A stretch of 32,000 nucleotides of DNA, taken from assembly GCF_004217445.1 (NCBI RefSeq), contig NZ_SHKX01000013.1, positions 451,031 to 483,030 of the forward strand, given 5' to 3'. Positions 6,293 through 31,500 of this stretch are shown in pieces; the stretch's first letter is position 1; every line of letters starts with the position of its first letter. The notes beneath the pieces are model-generated. The model was not told the DNA's origin. It saw only the letters and a program-made list of their open reading frames with translations, and did no database searches. The position numbers and the translations under genes are program-made. Source of the DNA: Fluviicoccus keumensis. GTDB taxonomy: Bacteria > Pseudomonadota > Gammaproteobacteria > Pseudomonadales > Moraxellaceae.

Positions 6293-7390
6293 TTAGTCGC
6301 CGCTGACCGGAGGACGGATCTCGTCGCCCTGTTTCACCACGGTCGAGGCTTTCAGCACAATGGCGTAGCTGACCTTGTTGAAGGTGCGGAACACCATCGC
6401 CAGACCGGAACGCTCGGAAGGCAGCTGCACCAGTTCATCCTTGGTGCGGTCGCGCACAACGCCCCCGTGCTGGTAAACCGCGAAGGTGTGTCCTTGAACC
6501 ACGCCGTCGCGCTCGCCGCGGTTAACGACGATGATGCTGTTCAGACCGCCGGAACCCAGCGAGTTCATGACCTGCAGGATGCGGCCGGGCTTCACGTTCT
6601 CGGGGTTGGTCGGGTGGAAAACCGGGGTCACCGGCATGGCTTCGCTCAGCAGCAGGCGATCCTCGATACGAACTTCCTGGGTGGTGCGGGCCACGGAGAG
6701 GGTGCCGACATCGCCCTGCACAGCCGTGATGCTGCCGGCGCCGATGTCCATGGCTTCGATGCCCAGGATTTCCTGGGTGTCCGGATCCAGATAGAGATTG
6801 CCGCGGCGGTATACGCCATAGTTGTCGCCAACCGCCAATCCCTTGCCGCGCGCATAAACCTGTTCGCCGGCGCCGGCGATGATGCGGTGACCCAGACCGG
6901 CCAGCACATAGGGAGCGCGTTCGAAGTCTTCCGGCCCGACCACGCGGCTGCCGGACAGGAAGGCGCGGATGGCCTGCAGCGGCACGGCGGGAATGGCCAC
7001 GCTCATCGGTTCGGAACGGATTTGCGGCAACAGCTTGCCGGAGTCGCCGTCAACACGGCCGGTCGCCTTGTTGGTCAGGCGCTGCGCCACATCCGCGCAC
7101 CCGCCGCCGGTATCCACCGCGACCACGTTACGGTCCTGGATACGGCACAGCACCAGCTTGTCGCCGGGATAGATCAGGTGGGGATTGCGCACCTGCGGGT
7201 TCACTTCCCAGATTTCCGGCCAGCGCCACGGATCCTTCAGGTATCGGTTGGAAATGTCCCACAGGGTGTCGCCCTTCTGGACCGTGTAGCGCTCAGGCGC
7301 CGTGTCCTTGACATCGACAGGCTTGGGGCTGGCAGCCATGGCGCTACCGGCCAGCAGGCCGGCAACGAGTAATAGAACCGGTTTTTTCAT
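6293..7390 (-). CDS. LysM peptidoglycan-binding protein, TsaP-like by position
   Basis: I prefer the ATG at 7390 (MKKPVLLLVAGLLAGSAMA signal peptide) over the TTG at 7396. LysM motif: YTVQKGDTLWDISNRYLKDPWRWPEIWEVNPQVRNPHLIYPGDKL. It occupies the slot between dprA and def where Pseudomonas/Neisseria carry the LysM protein TsaP (recalled synteny). Confidence 0.8.
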   Translation of the reverse strand: MKKPVLLLVAGLLAGSAMAASPKPVDVKDTAPERYTVQKGDTLWDISNRYLKDPWRWPEIWEVNPQVRNPHLIYPGDKLVLCRIQDRNVVAVDTGGGCADVAQRLTNKATGRVDGDSGKLLPQIRSEPMSVAIPAVPLQAIRAFLSGSRVVGPEDFERAPYVLAGLGHRIIAGAGEQVYARGKGLAVGDNYGVYRRGNLYLDPDTQEILGIEAMDIGAGSITAVQGDVGTLSVARTTQEVRIEDRLLLSEAMPVTPVFHPTNPENVKPGRILQVMNSLGSGGLNSIIVVNRGERDGVVQGHTFAVYQHGGVVRDRTKDELVQLPSERSGLAMVFRTFNKVSYAIVLKASTVVKQGDEIRPPVSGD

Positions 7391-25616: not shown

Positions 25617-26567
25617 TCAGGAAACCGGCCGGGGCTGAAACAAGACCCGCAGCCACTCCCGCAACAGGGCGGCGCGGTTGATCAGCAGGGAACCGAAAAT
25701 CAGCGAGCAGCCCGCCAGCTGCACGCCGCCCATGGTTTCCCCCAGCCAGGCCACCGCCAGCAGCGCCACCCACACCGGCTCCACCACCATGATCACCACG
25801 CCATGCGTATGGCCGGACAGGCTTTGCGCGTGCGTCTGCAACAGGAAGCGCATGGCGGTGCCGATCACGGCGCTGGCCGCGATCCAGCCGCCCATGGCCG
25901 GGGTGAAATGACCGAACACGGGCGTCCAGGCCTCGAAGGCCAGCGACAGGACGCCGGACACCAGGCCCACCATGGCCAGCACCACCGAGGTCAAGGCAAT
26001 GGCGGGCACGCCGGGAACGTGCTTGTGGCTGCCGTCCGGACGGCGATGCTGGCGGGCGTTGGCCGCCTGCATGTTCAAACGGAAAAACAGGGCGAACAGC
26101 ACGGCGGAGGTGACGTAGAACACCTGCCCCGCCTCGGGACGGAAACCGTGGCGCAGGGACAGCAGGCCGAGGCCCGCGGCCGCCACCGGCAGCGCAATCC
26201 ACGTACTGCGCGGCGGTCGCTCGCCGAAGAACAGCCGCCCCATCACCGGCACCAGCACTACGCCCAGACTGGTGAGGAACGCGCCCTCGCCGACGTGACT
26301 GCCGGTGAAGATGCCCATGACCCAACAGCTCATGGCCACCGCGAATACCAGTCCGACCCCGATGCTGCGGCGCAGGGCATGACGATCCAGACTGCGCAGG
26401 GTGCGGTGGCCGATGGCGGCCAGCAACGCCGACGCCAGCAGGAAGCGCAGGCACATGAACAGCAGCGGCGGCATCAGCAGCACCGCCTCGCGCGACATGA
26501 TCCAGCTGACGGCGGCCAGCAGGGTGACGCCGACGAGCATGAGGTCGGATTTGGCGGCGGGGGTCAT
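25617..26567 (-). CDS. DMT-superfamily (EamA-like) transporter
   Basis: I chose the ATG at 26567 (MTPAAKSDLMLVGVTLLAAVSWIMSRE). It is a polytopic membrane protein with two EamA-like halves. The tracked start 26693 adds a non-membrane extension. Confidence 0.8.
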   Translation of the reverse strand: MTPAAKSDLMLVGVTLLAAVSWIMSREAVLLMPPLLFMCLRFLLASALLAAIGHRTLRSLDRHALRRSIGVGLVFAVAMSCWVMGIFTGSHVGEGAFLTSLGVVLVPVMGRLFFGERPPRSTWIALPVAAAGLGLLSLRHGFRPEAGQVFYVTSAVLFALFFRLNMQAANARQHRRPDGSHKHVPGVPAIALTSVVLAMVGLVSGVLSLAFEAWTPVFGHFTPAMGGWIAASAVIGTAMRFLLQTHAQSLSGHTHGVVIMVVEPVWVALLAVAWLGETMGGVQLAGCSLIFGSLLINRAALLREWLRVLFQPRPVS

Positions 26568-26728
26568 GGGATAGGGCACCGGCACGGACGGGCTGCCATT
26601 GTGCGGTATCCGTGCGGGAAAATCATCGAGACGTTGGGAGGGGGGAGCCTGGCTTAGCCGGACAAACCGTACATTCAGCGATGAAGGGCGCACGCAGTGC
26701 GTCCCTACGGGATTGCCGGGAGTTGAAG

Positions 26729-26757
26729 TTGACCGGGTTGGCGGGGGCTGCTAGCGT
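26729..26757 (+). promoter_or_regulatory. Promoter-like TTGACC-N17-TAGCGT inside repeat copy 1
   Basis: TTGACC at 26729-26734 and TAGCGT at 26752-26757. The same arrangement is conserved in copy 2 (TTGACG 30239-30244, N18, TAGCTT 30263-30268). The -10 is weak, so this is a hypothesis only. Confidence 0.3.
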
Positions 26758-26786
26758 TGTTGCATTCCGTCCCATGGATTTAGTTC

Positions 26787-26904
26787 GCCTAACAAGGTGA
26801 GGCTTCCTGCCAAGCAGCTAATTTTAAAGGCAAATTATGGGGACTCATTCCTGTTTAGGCGAACGGTTTGATATGCGAACTCTGTCGCCGAAATATAGTT
26901 GGGC
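26787..26904 (+). other. attC site (long type, 118 bp), left-most in the array
   Basis: Inverse core GCCTAAC at 26787-26793 and core GTTGGGC at 26898-26904. It contains an internal imperfect inverted repeat TTCGCCTAACA / TGTTTAGGCGAA. I could not resolve the L boxes by hand. Confidence 0.6.
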
Positions 26905-27180
26905 ACCAAAATCGTGGATGTTGATGAAATAGCTCTGTTCGAAAATCTACTTGATTCGTTTGACAGACTTTACGATCAAGAATCGAGTGTTGTAGACATT
27001 TATGCGCTTCTGTTTGCCACAACCAAGGCACTACCTAATTCATCGTTTGCAGTACTCTTAAACACCACTACATCCGAACTTTTGAAAATTGTTCGATCTG
27101 GCTGCTCAGTCGAAGAGCAAAATAGCATTGTGCTTGATATTGTTCAGCCACTTCGCGAGGTAATCGCTGCTGTTGTTTAA
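26899..27180 (+). CDS. Cassette 1 ORF: small acidic helical protein, unknown function
   Basis: This is the only sizeable ORF in the 469-bp cassette (26899-27367) and shares the array's orientation. The start is uncertain (TTG 26899 inside the core, or GTG 26914) and there is no SD. I recognised no family. Confidence 0.45.
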   Translation: MGTKIVDVDEIALFENLLDSFDRLYDQESSVVDIYALLFATTKALPNSSFAVLLNTTTSELLKIVRSGCSVEEQNSIVLDIVQPLREVIAAVV

Positions 27181-27248
27181 GTTATTGAGGCGTGTGCTAT
27201 AGAGCTTTAAACTGACCCTAGTTGTCCAAAGCTTTTAGCGCTGCACTT

Positions 27249-27373
27249 GCCCAACTTTGCGCTCAAGTGGGATAACGCCCCAGCCACTTATGGGGCATTT
27301 TTTGATGGTTCTGAGGTACGTCTCAGATTTTATTTTGCTGTGGGGCGTTACCCCTTAGCGCCGGTAGTTAGGG
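27249..27373 (+). other. attC site of cassette 1 (125 bp)
   Basis: R'' is GCCCAAC at 27249-27255. L'' GCGCTCAAG (27259-27267) pairs with L' CTTAGCGC (27354-27361), leaving one bulged base. The stem continues GGG/CCC and TAACGCCCC (27273-27281) / GGGGCGTTA (27342-27350). Apical hairpin TCTGAG/CTCAGA is at 27310-27327. R' is GTTAGGG at 27367-27373. Confidence 0.8.
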
Positions 27374-27379
27374 CTAAAC

Positions 27380-27871
27380 ATGATCAAAGCCATCAGATTT
27401 GCAATATTTATTGGGGTTTCTATGAGCTCAAATGCAAATGAAATATTTATCCACTCTCACAATCCCACCTCCAATCGATTCGCCATACTAGAGGATAATG
27501 AAAGCATTGCTTTTCTTTATCTAACGGAAGTCGGAACTCAACGCCCCATCAAAGATGCCGTTGCCTACTCTCGCCATCCCCTCGCTCTGAAAGTCGATTG
27601 GGAAAAAATCAAAGAGAAGGGCGATACCCCGCCACTATCAAAAGATGTTGCAAGTTCAGAGGCAGTTATTGCAAACCCTTCAGAGGTTGAGTTTTCTTTT
27701 AAATGGTCATCTGATGGTAACGCCGTAGCATTACTCCGAAATGGAAAACCGATTGCATTTGCTTCAGCCTCAGAAAAATATGGCTTTTCTAAAGCCATAT
27801 CAAAGCCCAGCCCACTAGCAAACGCTTGGGATCAAGGGCTTTATGAAGTTACATTTGGAGAGCAGCCCTAA
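27380..27871 (+). CDS. Cassette 2 ORF: unknown protein, possibly DUF2251-like
   Basis: 163 aa, or 149 aa from the ATG at 27422. The pattern FAILEDNESIAFLYL ... KWSSDGNAVALLRNGKPIAF resembles my recollection of DUF2251 proteins (vFEDDGetGYfY ... Ws.dG.kaaLlinG). The stop TAA lies inside the attC inverse core. Confidence 0.6.
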   Translation: MIKAIRFAIFIGVSMSSNANEIFIHSHNPTSNRFAILEDNESIAFLYLTEVGTQRPIKDAVAYSRHPLALKVDWEKIKEKGDTPPLSKDVASSEAVIANPSEVEFSFKWSSDGNAVALLRNGKPIAFASASEKYGFSKAISKPSPLANAWDQGLYEVTFGEQP

Positions 27872-27945
27872 CTAGTGGTTCGTTCACATCGTTCGCTGCG
27901 CTCACTGGGACGGGCTAAAGCCCACTCCTTAAGCAACCGTTAGAG
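27865..27945 (+). other. attC site of cassette 2 (81 bp)
   Basis: Inverse core GCCCTAAC is at 27865-27872 and core GTTAGAG at 27939-27945. GGTTCGTT and AAGCAACC are partially complementary L-like boxes. Central hairpin GGGC-TAAA-GCCC is at 27912-27923. Confidence 0.75.
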
Positions 27946-27962
27946 CCAACAAGGAGGTTCAT

Positions 27963-28367
27963 ATGTATAGCGCAGGAAAAGAGGTTCTTGAGCAGGGCTT
28001 AAGCTTGTTCAGCCGGATCTTATTGGGCGTCGTCGCCGGCCTGTTTGGTGTTGGAATGATTTTTATGGGGCATGCGGCCAAGGCTCCTTGGTTCTTCTAT
28101 GTCTTTGGCTCGTTCTGTCTTTTTATTACGGTGGCTTGCATTACAACCGGAAAAGTCAGGGTCTTTTTTGGAAGGCTCATCGGAGCGCTGGTTTTCATGG
28201 CTGCGGCTTGGTATCTAGTCTCAGAGTTATCTTCCGGGCCGATCATTTCAGGCATGGACGCCGACCCATCCATTCTTAACGCGGCTAAGTTTTTCATACT
28301 GGCAGGCATACCTGGTCTGGGCTATGCGTTATTCGCGCGCTTCTCTCCAAGAGAATCGGATAAATGA
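27963..28367 (+). CDS. Cassette 3 ORF: small integral membrane protein (four hydrophobic segments), unknown function
   Basis: ATG lies 5 nt after a perfect AAGGAGG (27951-27957). 134 aa with four predicted TM helices. The attC follows immediately. Confidence 0.7.
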   Translation: MYSAGKEVLEQGLSLFSRILLGVVAGLFGVGMIFMGHAAKAPWFFYVFGSFCLFITVACITTGKVRVFFGRLIGALVFMAAAWYLVSELSSGPIISGMDADPSILNAAKFFILAGIPGLGYALFARFSPRESDK

Positions 28368-28375
28368 ACGAGTTG

Positions 28376-28440
28376 GCTCTAACCATTCGCGGCAGGTGCG
28401 GCGGTCCTGACGGGCCGCGAGCTGGGCTCATTCGTTAGGT
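28376..28440 (+). other. attC site of cassette 3 (65 bp, classical short type)
   Basis: GCTCTAAC-CATTCG...GCCGCGAGCTGGGCTCATTC-GTTAGGT. The layout closely parallels the aadA-type attC as I recall it (GTCTAACAATTCG...CTCAAGCGTTAGAT). Core GTTAGGT at 28434-28440 fits GTTRRRY. Confidence 0.8.
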
Positions 28441-28531
28441 ACGGACAGGAACGGAACTCACGAACAGCCCCGGAAAGCTCAGGCCTGCTTGGCTACTTCT
28501 GGTCCCTGCCCCAGTTTTTCATCTTCAAACC

Positions 28532-30061
28532 TTAGCCCCCGTCCAAGCTGTCAAACGCCCACCAGCATGAACCGCCGCCCCCAAACGTATGCCGTGTCTT
28601 CCGGTCAAAATGGAACTCGCCCTGACAGGCCCGCCCTCTTTCCAGCGCACCACGCAGTTCATCCCACTGCCCCAGCAAATCCTTGTTCTTCGCCCACTCG
28701 GGGGGATTCGCGTATTTGATCCGCAACTTGTACCGGAACGCATCTCCTTCCGTGTCATAGGGGTCATCATTGATCAGCTGCGCATCCACAATATCGACCG
28801 AAGCAACCCCCAAGGGCAGACAATCCGGGCGTTTGGGATCGACCGCGGTTGCATAGCCTGCCGTCAGCTCAAAGATATCGGCCTTTTGGCGCCGGCCATC
28901 TTCAAGCTGAATGTCTTGTCCAGCCCTCCTTTGCATCACCCCCAGGCGTTCAAGTAATTCGAGATAGGGTATCGTCTTGCGGGCAACCGGATCCCAGCCT
29001 GATCGCCCCTTGGACGGGAAAATGGCCACGGCGTAGTGGTCCGACTCGCCTTCAAACAGCGATTTGTCCACCGGCAAGTTTCCCCTGCCCGGCAGGGCCA
29101 GACAGGTACCGGGCCACTGACCAGCCTTGCCATGACCATGCATCTCCGCCAGCAGACGTCGAATTTCATCCACCGTCGGTGGTGCAAAGGCTTTCAGGGC
29201 CTCCATCTTGCGGATACGCAGGGCAGCCAGCCGCGACAGCATCGCTTCGTATTCGGCCCGGCCGCCATCCTTTTGCGTGGCATCCACATAAGCATCCTTG
29301 TAATCGCGGCTGTAAACCGTAGGGGCGCGACCACACGGCCCTTGCCCATCCCGGACCAAGTGCCGACACTCAACCCAGGATTTGTTTTGACGAACCAACT
29401 GAACCTTGAACATCTGCCCGGCACTGTTCTTTTCGATTTCCGGGAAAGCCGCCAGCAGCGCGGGATTTCTTACCCATGCGGATTCTGCTGATGTTGCATC
29501 CAGCCCGATCCGGGCCGTGACCTCGTAAAACGGCTGGCTTTGCCCTGCCTGACTGCCCGGCGGATGCGGAGTGATTTGATCGATGCCGAGGTAATGTGGC
29601 TGTCCGTATTCGAAACAGCTGGCATTGCGGTTCGGACCCGATTTCAGCCAGCCCGACTCAGACAGCCGGTAACGGATAGCCGGGCGACCGTTCAGGGTCA
29701 ATGTCAGTTTTTCCAGCAAACCGGCCTGGCTCAGTGCATCCAGTTTCCGCAATTGCTCCTGACGGGGAGCAGACTCCGGAGCATCGGTATAGAAATCCAT
29801 GGACCACGCCAACGGTTCACGGGTCTTCGTGCCCACATCCGGAGCAGGATAGGACGGCAGGGAAAGACACAACCGTTTTCCTTGCTCGCCCCCGGAATGC
29901 TGTTCCCAAAGGGCGCGGACTACAGGATCGAAATTGGCGGCCGTGGGTTGGTTTTCCTGCCAGTGGTTGTAGGCATACACGCCGGCTGTCAGTGTCAGAC
30001 CCAATCCGAGGACTGCCGCAACTGACGGGAAAATGCGACGTTTACTGAAATTTAAATGCAT
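28532..30061 (-). CDS. Exported / membrane-anchored Cys-containing protein of unknown function, reverse-oriented in the array
   Basis: 509 aa. The N-terminus KRR + IFPSVAAVLGLGLTLTAGVYAY is a signal peptide or signal anchor. There are eight Cys. An apparent two-fold internal repeat is anchored on CLxLP, L(D/E)xLxxxG(L/V)(L/M), (Y/F)xL(S/T)xxG(W/Y) and C(F/L)xxG. G+C (about 52-63% on sampled lines) is intermediate between the other cassettes and the host. Confidence 0.75.
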   Translation of the reverse strand: MHLNFSKRRIFPSVAAVLGLGLTLTAGVYAYNHWQENQPTAANFDPVVRALWEQHSGGEQGKRLCLSLPSYPAPDVGTKTREPLAWSMDFYTDAPESAPRQEQLRKLDALSQAGLLEKLTLTLNGRPAIRYRLSESGWLKSGPNRNASCFEYGQPHYLGIDQITPHPPGSQAGQSQPFYEVTARIGLDATSAESAWVRNPALLAAFPEIEKNSAGQMFKVQLVRQNKSWVECRHLVRDGQGPCGRAPTVYSRDYKDAYVDATQKDGGRAEYEAMLSRLAALRIRKMEALKAFAPPTVDEIRRLLAEMHGHGKAGQWPGTCLALPGRGNLPVDKSLFEGESDHYAVAIFPSKGRSGWDPVARKTIPYLELLERLGVMQRRAGQDIQLEDGRRQKADIFELTAGYATAVDPKRPDCLPLGVASVDIVDAQLINDDPYDTEGDAFRYKLRIKYANPPEWAKNKDLLGQWDELRGALERGRACQGEFHFDRKTRHTFGGGGSCWWAFDSLDGG

Positions 30062-30231
30062 GTGAAATCCGTTCTTATGATTTTCGGCAAGTCGGCTAGC
30101 GCGACCCTTGCGAATGTTATGGCTGTCCTAGGCAAACGACAAGCGTGGCCGTTTGGAAGATTTTCCCCTTGGAGGCTGTAGTCCCTTAGCCGGGGCGGAA
30201 TCAGAAATAGGGGCCAGTCCCCCTGTGTTTA

Positions 30232-30420
30232 GCTTAGGTTGACGGAGGGTGGCGCGCGCTGCTAGCTTTCAGGAACTTCATCCTATGGGTTTAGTTCGCC
30301 TAACAAGGTGAGGCTTCCTGACAAGCGGCTAATTTGAAAGGCAAATGACTCTGACTCATTGCTGTTTAGGCGAATGGATTGTTATGCAAACTCTGTCGCC
30401 GAAATATAGTTAGGCATCAA
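30232..30420 (+). repeat. Copy 2 of the ~190-bp module (promoter-like box + long attC)
   Basis: See copy 1: 30292-30420 matches 26781-26909 at 114/129 positions. Differences cluster in an 8-nt block (TATGGGGA versus GACTCTGA). Confidence 0.85.
30298..30415 (+). other. attC site (long type, 118 bp) closing the 2-kb unit
   Basis: Inverse core GCCTAAC (30298-30304) is perfectly complementary to core GTTAGGC (30409-30415). It has the same architecture as 26787-26904. Confidence 0.6.
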
Positions 30421-30432
30421 GGGAGACGAACA

Positions 30433-30801
30433 GTGCCGCAAACAGTCATTCCGCAACTACGCATCACAAACTCAGAACAAAGCCTTGGCTTCTATGTCAA
30501 CGGCCTCGGCTTCAAGATTGACTGGCAGCACCGATTCGGTCCCCGCTACCCGCTTTTTGTTCAACTCACGAGGCAAGGCCAAACGATCTTTCTGACAGAG
30601 CATATGGGCGACTGTGAAGTCGGAGGCGCCGTCTACTTCATCGTCCAAGATGCCGGACACACTTTGTCCGAGTTTGAGCAACATGGTGTCGTTGCCACCA
30701 ACCCACTGTCAAATACATCGTGGGGTACAAGCGAATTTCTGCTGACCGATCCGGACGGCAACCGTTTGCGCTTTGCCTCTGAACTTCAGCAACAAACATG
30801 A
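30433..30801 (+). CDS. Cassette ORF: glyoxalase / bleomycin-resistance (VOC) family protein
   Basis: GTG 30433 lies 6 nt after AAGGGAGA and inside the cassette; the tracked TTG 30379 would start inside the preceding attC. IPQLRITNSEQSLGFYVNGLGF ... LLTDPDGNRLRF fits the VOC/Ble-like pattern. 122 aa. Confidence 0.8.
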   Translation: MPQTVIPQLRITNSEQSLGFYVNGLGFKIDWQHRFGPRYPLFVQLTRQGQTIFLTEHMGDCEVGGAVYFIVQDAGHTLSEFEQHGVVATNPLSNTSWGTSEFLLTDPDGNRLRFASELQQQT

Positions 30802-30828
30802 CTCGCCAAGTCCCAGCGGTCACTTGCT

Positions 30829-30848
30829 GCCTAACCTGGGCGTTTTAG
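30829..30848 (+). other. Truncated attC remnant (inverse core only)
   Basis: CTTGCTGCCTAAC (30823-30835) is the reverse complement (12/13) of the cassette 5' end GTTAGGCATCAAG (30409-30421). Only about 25 bp remain before the next ORF, with a core-like GTTTTAG at 30842-30848. Confidence 0.5.
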
Positions 30849-30860
30849 AGGAGCCACATT

Positions 30861-31370
30861 TTGCTCGATCTTGATGATCCTCGTTGGTACGAGCTCAAAC
30901 ATGCTTATGGCACGGCTGCGGATATCCCTGCGTTGTTAAAACAACTCGCCGATCTACCGTCCTCCGAAAACGACAACGAGCCTTGGTTCTCCATCTGGAG
31001 CGCATTGGCGCATCAAGGCGACGTCTACACAGCTTCTTTCGCTGCCGTGCCACACGTAATAGAGGCGCTCGCCTCTGCCCCGTTAAAAGCCGATTTCTCC
31101 TATTTTCAATTTCCGGCCTGGGTTGAAGTCTGCCGCACCAAGAAGAGCGTTTCGGTTCCTGAAGACATTGCCCCAGCCTACTTTGAGTCCTTGTCTCGGC
31201 TGCCCTCGCTTGTGGGTGCAGCAGCCGCGCGCCCATGGGACGAAGGGTTTCTATGTTGCGCTCTTTCAGCGGTTGCCGCGGCGAAAGGGCAGCCCTCAGT
31301 TGCCGAAGCAGTGTTGGAGCTTTCGCCCGAGGTGGCCGGCGAGTTCATGGAGTGGTTCTATGAACGCTGA
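30861..31370 (+). CDS. Helical protein of unknown function (last ORF of the array)
   Basis: TTG start lies 7 nt after AGAGGAG (30847-30853). 169 aa. The N-terminal block DDPRWYELKHAYGTAADIPALLKQL recalls uncharacterised HEAT-like or immunity-like proteins, but I cannot name a family. Confidence 0.65.
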   Translation: MLDLDDPRWYELKHAYGTAADIPALLKQLADLPSSENDNEPWFSIWSALAHQGDVYTASFAAVPHVIEALASAPLKADFSYFQFPAWVEVCRTKKSVSVPEDIAPAYFESLSRLPSLVGAAAARPWDEGFLCCALSAVAAAKGQPSVAEAVLELSPEVAGEFMEWFYER

Positions 31371-31475
31371 AAAGCCCAATTCTACGTTATCGCCATAAAA
31401 CAACCGGAACCAATCGGGAGGGAATAGGCACCTGTCCCCAATTTTCCCCCGACGACCCTCCGCCCTGTCAGCAGC

Positions 31476-31493
31476 GTCGGGCTGAAGCCCGAC
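31476..31493. other. 7-bp perfect hairpin at the island / thiolase junction
   Basis: GTCGGGC-TGAA-GCCCGAC, 8 bp from the thiolase stop. There is no T-run on either strand. Confidence 0.35.
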
Positions 31494-31500
31494 CCACAGG

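Follow-up and report, generated by a model that had tools for sequence, protein, structure and literature searches.

The DNA analysed here, referred to as the window, is a 32,000-nucleotide (32-kb) stretch of contig NZ_SHKX01000013.1. Its host is Fluviicoccus keumensis: HemF, oligopeptidase A, DprA and a 509-amino-acid protein encoded in it match that species exactly, and the window is chromosomal. The surrounding genome is ~65% G+C, and from ~26700 to 31450 the value falls to 44-59%, marking a 4.7-kb low-G+C island that lies between an EamA transporter gene and a thiolase gene, both on the minus strand. From left to right the island contains copy 1 of a duplicated module, three small open reading frames (ORFs) each with an attC site, a reversed gene for the 509-amino-acid protein, copy 2 of the module, an ORF of the vicinal oxygen chelate (VOC) family and an ORF of 169 amino acids. 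The ORF at 25617-26693 was first suspected of being an integron integrase gene (intI) and turned out to encode the EamA transporter. A first-pass annotation, made from the letters alone, had read the module as an ORF-less promoter cassette ending in a long attC, or else as a small RNA. The analysis described below indicates that the two copies are very probably residual platforms (intI stub, promoters and attI site) of a Fluviicoccus-type chromosomal integron whose integrase gene has been deleted.

A repeat search identified one two-copy family in direct orientation (26736-26909 and 30247-30420; 174 nt, 84% identical without gaps, spacing 3511). Alignment with MAFFT, flanks included, resolved this family into a nearly identical core at ~26776-26908 (~88%) and a much weaker left part of ~50 nt, with similarity ending at both borders. 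Both methods thus agree with the direct ~190-bp duplication, 3,511 bp apart and weaker upstream, that had been noticed at the outset, and the match of copy 2 to the version of copy 1 on an independently assembled contig (L001; blastn E = 1e-43) is far beyond chance. The sequence elements listed for the module are also present in both copies: the TTGAC(C/G) box (TTGACC-N17-TAGCGT, 26729-26757, and TTGACG-N18-TAGCTT, 30239-30268, both on the plus strand); the inverse core GCCTAAC (26787-26793 and 30298-30304); an imperfect inverted repeat (arms 26783-26797 and 26850-26864 in copy 1, 87% complementary); the inner GTTTAGGC (26853-26860 and 30364-30371), which is a second, related integrase-type box; and the outer core (GTTGGGC, 26898-26904, and GTTAGGC, 30409-30415), at which the next cassette begins.

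The module was compared with 72,556 plasmids using blastn, and with genome contigs and metagenome contigs using exact patterns. Nothing was found among the plasmids, and neither the exact stem-pair pattern in the genome contigs nor a 20-mer in the metagenome contigs gave a match. The 18-mer TGTCGCCGAAATATAGTT, taken from the best-conserved block, occurred in 11 genome contigs, which is approximately the number expected by chance, and only one of these matches was genuine. This contig (L009; 1.4 kb, from a metagenome-assembled genome (MAG) of Fluviicoccus sp.) matches the module at 80% over 191 nt, and here the module abuts a divergent 330-amino-acid ORF whose ATG lies inside it. The ORF encodes an integron integrase (TIGR02249, 452.8 bits against a cutoff of 265) that shares 53% full-length identity with IntI1. 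Its closest homologs are 91%, 85%, 84% and 75% identical (P0001-P0004; PF13495 and PF00589), and the contigs that encode them (L094-L097) all carry the module in the same register beside an intact intI, giving five contigs (L009, L094, L095, L096 and L097) in which the start codon of an intact intI lies inside the module.

In two further Fluviicoccus MAGs, which were found by using a lysozyme-family neighbour of intI as a handle, the module adjoins a decayed intI: in L102/L103 the gene is internally deleted such that residues 1-106 are fused to 291-328, and in L104 it has been cut down to ~30 recognisable codons. Seven public contigs therefore carry the module, with an identity of 75-81% where this was measured on full-length copies. 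In an alignment of nine copies (the two window copies together with L009, L094-L097, L102 and L104) every copy has intI, or what is left of it, on its left side in a constant register, and only the right flank varies. Across all fetched loci, nhmmer never placed the module inside an array. Among 80 metagenome loci with an IntI 49-66% identical, the module was absent at the nucleotide level except for a weak, correctly placed match in L046. A search of a literature library found no paper that mentions Fluviicoccus together with integrons.

The neighbour used as a handle is a ~270-amino-acid protein (N-terminus MPTxKLTPALRADYLRLFQTCRI) encoded immediately downstream of intI in every related locus (L094 1932-2744; L096 1117-1308; L097 11027-11335; L102 10001-10816; L104 10001-10819; L009 1170-1402). 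It carries the JGI label 'lysozyme family protein', has no Pfam match and has thousands of homologs, one of them in Pseudomonas alcaligenes. Several short-read contigs end at or within the module: L001 at a 31-nt block common to both window copies, L009 exactly at GTTAG, and L095 and L096 within the module. Contig ends of this sort can mark integron attI sites in metagenome assemblies.

When aligned to the first codons of the intact intI genes (L009, L094-L097), the left end of each window copy reads as a decayed 5′ stub of intI on the minus strand. The stub of copy 1 (26709-26761) matches codons ~1-17, with homology to the intact relatives beginning at ~26709-26710, and its former start codon (26759-26761) has GTT in place of CAT. 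The stub of copy 2 (30231-30272, homology from ~30231) retains ~14 codons, its former start codon (30270-30272) reads CAG, and the ribosome-binding region is degraded. Beside a complete platform stands a divergently oriented gene for an integron integrase, a tyrosine recombinase with the IntI-specific insertion; the window copies, with only their decayed stubs, are remnants and not complete integrons. As an outcome that would count against a cassette, the first-pass annotation had allowed that the upstream 60 bp might simply be the end of a decayed ORF, and this is essentially what was found: the weakly conserved ~50 bp belong to a decayed intI ORF that runs on the opposite strand, and represent its 5′ end. 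No intI was detected elsewhere in the 32-kb window (tblastn best E = 0.75), and the best 120 IntI homologs include no F. keumensis protein.

To the left of both stubs lies the 9-mer CTTAGCCGG (26653-26661 and 30188-30196), followed by G+C-rich hairpins (26688-26707, GGGCGCAC-GCA-GTGCGTCCC; 30209-30224, AGGGG-CCAGT-CCCCT). The distances from these elements to the stub differ between the copies and nothing alike occurs in the relatives; they may be a chance resemblance or a trace of common ancestry of the two truncation junctions.

Between the former start codon and the array, both copies are homologous to the intI-attI intergenic region of the relatives (copy 1, 26762-26904, plus strand, nhmmer E = 2.4e-54, 80-81% identical to L009 and L094; copy 2, 30273-30415, plus strand, nhmmer E = 1.4e-51). 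In all seven full-length copies GTTRR is the last part of this homology, beyond which six arrays continue with six unrelated cassette sequences; in L094 and L097 a ribosome-binding site and an ATG lie directly in the sequence beyond GTTRR. Because a common stop is followed by six different continuations, the GTTRR junction is identified as the attI crossover. The simple site of copy 1 is GTCGCCGAAATATA-GTTGGGC (26884-26904, crossover G26898/T26899) and that of copy 2 lies at 30395-30415 (crossover G30409/T30410), both on the plus strand. From the intI ATG, the crossover lies 137 nt away in L009, L094 and L104, 148 nt away in L097 and L102, and 136 nt away in a class 1 integron. The 3′ end of the module resembles that of attI1 (GTCGCC..AAA..GTTAG): the last 28 nt of copy 2 agree with the attI1 end (GTCGCCCTAAAACAAA-GTTAGAT) at 18 of 28 positions, which was reached by 1 of 2000 shuffles. 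An attI is recognised as a site beside intI that ends in GTTRRRY and at which the first cassette starts, and to judge from its letters and its placement the module carries such a site.

The inner core, which had been described as slightly defective, is a conserved accessory box, GTTTAGGCGAA(C). In copy 1 it reads GTTTAGGCGAAC (26853-26864, plus strand) and doubles as the right-hand arm of the imperfect inverted repeat (26783-26797/26850-26864); in copy 2 it lies at 30364-30375 (plus strand) with the same 42-nt spacing. In each of the eight sequences measured, TAGRCGAA precedes the crossover G by exactly 42 nt; these include L046, where IntI is only 58% identical and the attI region is otherwise unalignable. 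No cassette junction lies at the accessory box, as conservation extends, in every copy, through the 45 nt beyond it. The motif TCGCCKAAM occurs six times in the window, each module holding three, with none outside the modules. attI1 has four IntI1-binding sites, and on that analogy the accessory boxes would be bound by the integrase.

The rightward TTGAC box, with its 17-18-nt spacer and a TAnnnT -10 hexamer, occupies the same place in 9/9 copies. It overlies intI codons 2-11 and points into the array, and in copy 2 it was located by pattern match and alignment; the pattern TTGACS-N17/18-TAKNNT was observed three times in the window against 0.08 expected. The -35 box coincides with intI codons 10-12, and in the five intact genes these codons (CGT CAA CCC) show no synonymous change and the neighbouring codons vary, which we take as mild evidence for constraint on the -35 box at the level of DNA. 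Cassette promoters of integrons (Pc) sit within or beside intI (PMC4889954, PMC12901181), and the box is most simply read as a candidate for the integron family's own Pc. It had been proposed that this promoter drives cassettes in an array that lacks a Pc. A conserved, outward promoter-like box does lie upstream of the cassettes and could plausibly drive them; the supposed lack of a Pc probably does not stand, the module being very probably the integron platform itself with a Pc-like box of its own.

A leftward sigma-70 match, which is likely to be the intI promoter (PintI), faces this candidate. In copy 1 its remnant is ATGAGT-N16-TAAAAT (26821-26848, minus strand), identified by consensus match, and at the same minus-strand position are TTGAGT-N16-TAGAAT in L009 and L094, TTGCCT-N16-TAAGAT in L097 and ATGAGT-N16-TCAAAT in copy 2; the -35 box of this candidate is weakened in both orphaned copies. 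A LexA box was sought in the same region, and the only match, CTGT-N8-ACNG with one mismatch in three of seven copies and upstream of the -35 box, was unconvincing. A short hairpin is present at the position of the would-be 5′ untranslated region (UTR) of intI in L009, L094, L095 and L104 (GCAAGGC-N6-GCCTTGC in L009, GCAAGGA/TCCTTGC in L094); ~3 bp of it are left in the window equivalents (26792-26815 and 30303-30326), and L097 and L102 have a different hairpin, CCGG-N6-CCGG, in the same place. Judged from sequence, this short 5′UTR hairpin may be a regulatory element of intI expression.

Thus, it appears very probable that each module copy is an integron platform from which the integrase gene has been lost. 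Read along the plus strand, such a platform would begin with ~14-17 decayed codons of a divergent intI, overlapped by the rightward TTGACS-N17/18-TAnnnT, its likely Pc; the former intI start codon and ribosome-binding site would follow, then the former intI promoter region, and finally attI, in which the accessory box GTTTAGGCGAA would precede, by 42 nt counted from its TAG, the crossover G of GTCGCCGAAATATA-G/TTRGGC. The remainder of intI would have been deleted, and the island would consist of stub 1 with three cassettes, the 509-amino-acid gene, and stub 2 with two cassettes. The stubs would still supply a promoter that transcribes otherwise promoterless cassettes, and they could remain docking sites for an integrase provided in trans, the arrays being frozen without one.

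Five observations weigh against this interpretation. The loss of intI is concluded from the 32-kb window and the best 120 IntI homologs, not from a whole-genome scan. The conservation of TTGAC could partly reflect coding constraint (Arg-Gln-Pro), since only the two intI-less window copies are free of coding. A generic sigma-70 scan leaves the TTGAC box uncalled, the -10 hexamer matching at 3/6 positions in both window copies (3-4/6 consensus positions across copies). The stub ends lie ~11 nt apart (26709 versus the equivalent of ~26720), which two independent deletions explain poorly; this proximity hints at a common truncated ancestor, as the simplest guess, or at another mechanism. Finally, the ~270-amino-acid lysozyme-family gene that neighbours intI in all relatives is absent from the window, so that the island occupies a locus other than the usual one; it has either been relocated or suffered a larger deletion.

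Array 1 (26899-28440, plus strand) comprises three cassettes, the core coordinates of which were read from the sequence. Their ORFs (26914-27180, 27380-27871 and 27963-28367) have no matches in Pfam, NCBIfam or PADLOC, and their attC sites lie at 27249-27373, 27866-27945 and 28377-28440. An Rfam scan returns no attC anywhere in the window, bona fide attCs included, and sites were judged by an explicit L-box test used as a structural proxy for the IntegronFinder attC covariance model. In this test the L box of the cassette-1 attC pairs at 8/8 positions and carries one extrahelical base, much as in the L097 array, where three of four tested attCs give 7/7-8/8 with one extrahelical base and the fourth 7/8; lower values were obtained for cassettes 2 and 3 (5/7 and 6/8). 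The attC at 27249-27373 is 89-92% identical to attCs of the L097 array, and that at 27866-27945 has an 84%-identical counterpart there. The first belongs to a family of ~125-nt attCs (R″ GCCCAAC, L box GCGCT(C)AAG/CTTAGCGC, R′ GTTAGGG), further members of which lie in L097 (5576-5698, 7633-7767, 8684-8794) and L102 (4083-4125, 7480-7561). Because this family is common, at 73-98%, to arrays beside related integrases, the cassettes are drawn from the pool of the same integron clade. The cassette array of L102 also contains an IS110-family transposase (6336-7370; DEDD_Tnp_IS110 and Transposase_20), possibly an attC-targeting element of the IS1111 type.

Array 2 (30410-31370, plus strand) contains the VOC/glyoxalase cassette and the 169-amino-acid ORF (30861-31370). 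The VOC ORF most likely starts at a GTG (30433-30801; ribosome-binding site GGGAGA) and matches Pfam Glyoxalase_7 (3.3e-20). The site after it (30778-30851) is atypical, with a possible R″ TCTGAAC followed by GCCTAAC-CTGGGC-GTTTTAG, the core of which is off-consensus. No attC is recognisable at 31371-31500, between the last ORF and the thiolase terminator hairpin, and from its sequence the distal end of array 2 looks truncated or decayed.

The orphan gene for the 509-amino-acid protein (28532-30061, minus strand) lies between array 1 and the second stub. Its product has a signal-peptide-like N-terminus and no match in Pfam, NCBIfam or PADLOC, and among 5.8 billion proteins it has only four homologs (33-42% identity), none of them in an integron context. 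Identification of the ORF as a transposase, a group II intron protein or a defence gene was considered and dropped, the family searches being empty and the four homologs not integron-linked. In three of the four homolog loci a second orphan gene, of ~505 amino acids, precedes the homolog, and in a Candidatus Accumulibacter MAG (L100) the homolog is flanked by two peptidase U32 genes.

With regard to the presence of two copies, identity between them is 86% from the former intI start codon to the core, compared with 81% between copy 1 and L009 and 80% between copy 1 and L094; over the stub, copy 2 matches L009 at 86% and copy 1 at only 75%. Since the copies are barely closer to each other than to those of other genomes, they did not arise by a recent duplication or an assembly artefact, and we prefer to regard them as two separate integrase-less platforms that would have come to lie in tandem. 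An alternative, which we consider unlikely, is that copy 2 forms the 3′ site of an 'attI-type' cassette composed of attC (28377-28440), the 509-amino-acid gene and the intI stub with attI, such that 28441-30409 could move by recombination between attC and attI. The geometry of this segment fits a delta-attI-type cassette, in which a gene has attC or attI on its upstream side and, where an attC would otherwise stand downstream, an attI-derived site: the attC R′ (28434-28440) is followed by the 509-amino-acid gene and then by copy 2, which is in direct orientation straight after the canonical array end, and G/TT sites at 28434 and 30409 bound the whole. The stub ends ~11 nt apart are compatible with such an origin, and attI copies of 14-244 nt within arrays, as well as a gene flanked on each side by a complete attI1, have been described and are recombination-proficient (PMC12901181). 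However, this is a single occurrence that two platforms fit equally well, the copies are 14% diverged from each other and lie at similar distances from other genomes, homologs of the 509-amino-acid protein are never integron-linked, and an in-array copy was found in no other genome.

It is less probable still that the intI-stub/attI module has been kept by selection as a stand-alone promoter and docking unit that is itself mobile. In this scenario the attC-like repeat GCCTAAC...GTTTAGGC/GTTRGGC would let an integrase acting in trans treat the module as a cassette end, stub 2 and the 509-amino-acid gene would form an 'attI-type mega-cassette', and the near-identical stub ends would result from integrase-mediated cutting near GTTGAC and not from random deletion.

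A mobile ORF-less cassette, consisting of a promoter and an unusually long attC (R″ GCCTAAC...R′ GTTRGGC) and inserted twice into an array without a Pc, is very improbable. The pair on which it is based does exist, GCCTAAC being complementary to GTTGGGC at 6/7 and to GTTAGGC at 7/7 positions, the promoter-like box is conserved, and ORF-less cassettes with promoter activity are documented (PMC6557892; bioRxiv 10.1101/2023.11.21.568050). An attC combines a complementary inverse core R″ (RYYYAAC) and core R′ (GTTRRRY) with an L″/L′ box that pairs just inside the R box over a short unpaired spacer and has one or more extrahelical bases, so that the whole folds as a single long imperfect hairpin; it occupies the 3′ end of its cassette and moves with it, and its flanks on either side vary from one occurrence to the next. 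However, such R″/R′ complementarity is also a property of the R and L boxes of attI and is insufficient alone to define an attC, and the module's pair lacks an L″/L′ box: the outer pair scores 0.5 in copy 1 and 1.5 in copy 2, 74% of shuffles equal the copy-1 pair, and the minimum-energy fold is multibranched with 3-4 hairpins. For the inner pair, GCCTAAC/GTTTAGGC, a bulge falls inside the R box and L pairs at only 7/9 and 5/7. Moreover, the left end of the supposed cassette runs into intI codons, and on the seven other contigs, as in all nine copies of the alignment, intI or its remnant adjoins the module at a fixed position, and in the loci fetched no copy was seen within an array.

Equally hard to sustain is the proposal that the module is a small RNA or a structured cis-regulatory leader, with the TTGAC box as promoter and the 82-nt inverted repeat as stem. 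A long imperfect hairpin does follow the promoter-like box, copy 1 folds with z = -2.35, and the internal hairpin GCAAGGC-N6-GCCTTGC shows one compensatory change in L094. Against this, Rfam gave nothing relevant for the window at the gathering threshold and for the island at E <= 10, copy 2 folds with z = -0.8 to -1.1, and the short hairpin is degraded in both window copies. The covariation term of RNAalifold over seven sequences is +0.29, which amounts to no covariation, the long stem being invariant except where changes in L094, L097 and L102 break pairs, and the small stem TAATTT/AAATTA, said to be kept despite substitutions, is likewise unsupported as a structure. A recent segmental duplication or an assembly artefact is the least credible account of the second copy: although short-read assemblies break at the 31-nt identical block (L001), the copies differ at ~14-16% of positions plus an indel, their start codons were lost by different mutations (GTT versus CAG), their flanks are entirely different on both sides, and the stretch between them is recovered without change in Logan contig L001, assembled independently from run SRR8552833.

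On the preferred reading of two integrase-less platforms, an apparently odd 'long attC/promoter cassette' becomes a case of ordinary integron decay, and a route to recognising others like it is given. As attI is not known for the majority of chromosomal integrons, arrays without an integrase are usually filed as attC-site clusters that have no integron integrase (CALIN) of unknown origin; residual attI homology can trace a CALIN to an integrase deletion even when only ~15 intI codons remain. The nine aligned copies define the attI/Pc/PintI region of an undescribed Fluviicoccus-type integron clade, yielding a candidate Pc and attI for a clade whose integrase is ~53% identical to IntI1. They also reveal integrase loss with retention of the promoter/attI module as a recurrent event in one genus, seen in the window (two stubs), L102 and L104.

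Comparison with class 1 integrons was made using plasmid NZ_CP098430.1 (L093). Common to both are a divergent intI separated by a ~136-137-nt spacer from a G/TTRRRY crossover; a cassette promoter that reads outward from inside intI or from its 5′ end, opposed by an inward intI promoter, both of which are candidates here; and a simple site (L-like box GTCGCC..AAA and R box GTTRRRY) with accessory integrase-type boxes upstream. In contrast, nucleotide similarity is not seen beyond the last ~25 nt, and the candidate Pc lies over intI codons 2-11, whereas the class 1 Pc lies ~90-120 nt inside intI1 in L093, where it reads TGGACA-N17-TAAGCT, the weak Pc variant. In addition, no convincing LexA box was seen in the module copies, and the integrase gene is gone from the window. 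attI1 consists of the L box CCCTAAA and then the R box GTTRRRY, together with DR1 and DR2 (PMC12901181); in place of these direct repeats, the module has a single GTTTAGGCGAA box 42 nt upstream and an inverted partner 60 nt further.

Array 1 has three attCs and the 32-kb window lacks an intI, so that the locus falls under the definition of a CALIN (Cury et al. 2016, PMC4889954). It shares with CALIN and degenerate chromosomal integrons (PMC4889954; PMC2426708) a short attC array without an adjacent intI, a sedentary chromosomal setting and the loss of the integrase. Of the 279 CALIN of Cury et al. (2016), only 15 had recognisable intI pseudogenes nearby, and attI could not be included in that search, being unknown for most integrons (PMC4889954). 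Unlike a typical CALIN, the island has a traceable origin, owing to the surviving attI/promoter region and a stub of 14-17 codons, which is too short for protein profiles, and a pair of these stubs lies in tandem.

The delta-attI-type cassettes and attI1-ORF-attI1 arrangements reported from class 1 and class 2 mobile integrons (Gonzales Machuca et al. 2026, PMC12901181, where Partridge et al. 2009 is cited on unusual attI-type arrangements) resemble the island in having a second attI-derived site in or after the array, in direct orientation, that bounds a gene with an upstream attC. Those sites are mostly 14-18 nt long (one is 244 nt, and one is a complete 65-bp attI1) and occur in clinical mobile integrons with a functional intI. 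Copy 2, in contrast, spans the entire ~140-nt intergenic region together with an intI stub, differs from copy 1 by 14% and lies in a chromosomal island that has no integrase; the gene it encloses is reversed and 1.5 kb long. The module has in common with ORF-less promoter cassettes that noncoding DNA of an array possibly provides a promoter; such cassettes are bounded by attC and mobile between arrays (PMC6557892; bioRxiv 10.1101/2023.11.21.568050), whereas the module is part of the platform and is not bounded by attC. Taken together, the locus is of a kind already known, a degenerate integron or, by the definition of Cury et al., a CALIN, and the advance is a modest one, consisting of the attI/Pc/PintI region of the clade, the repeated loss of the integrase within one genus, and two tandem stubs in a single genome.

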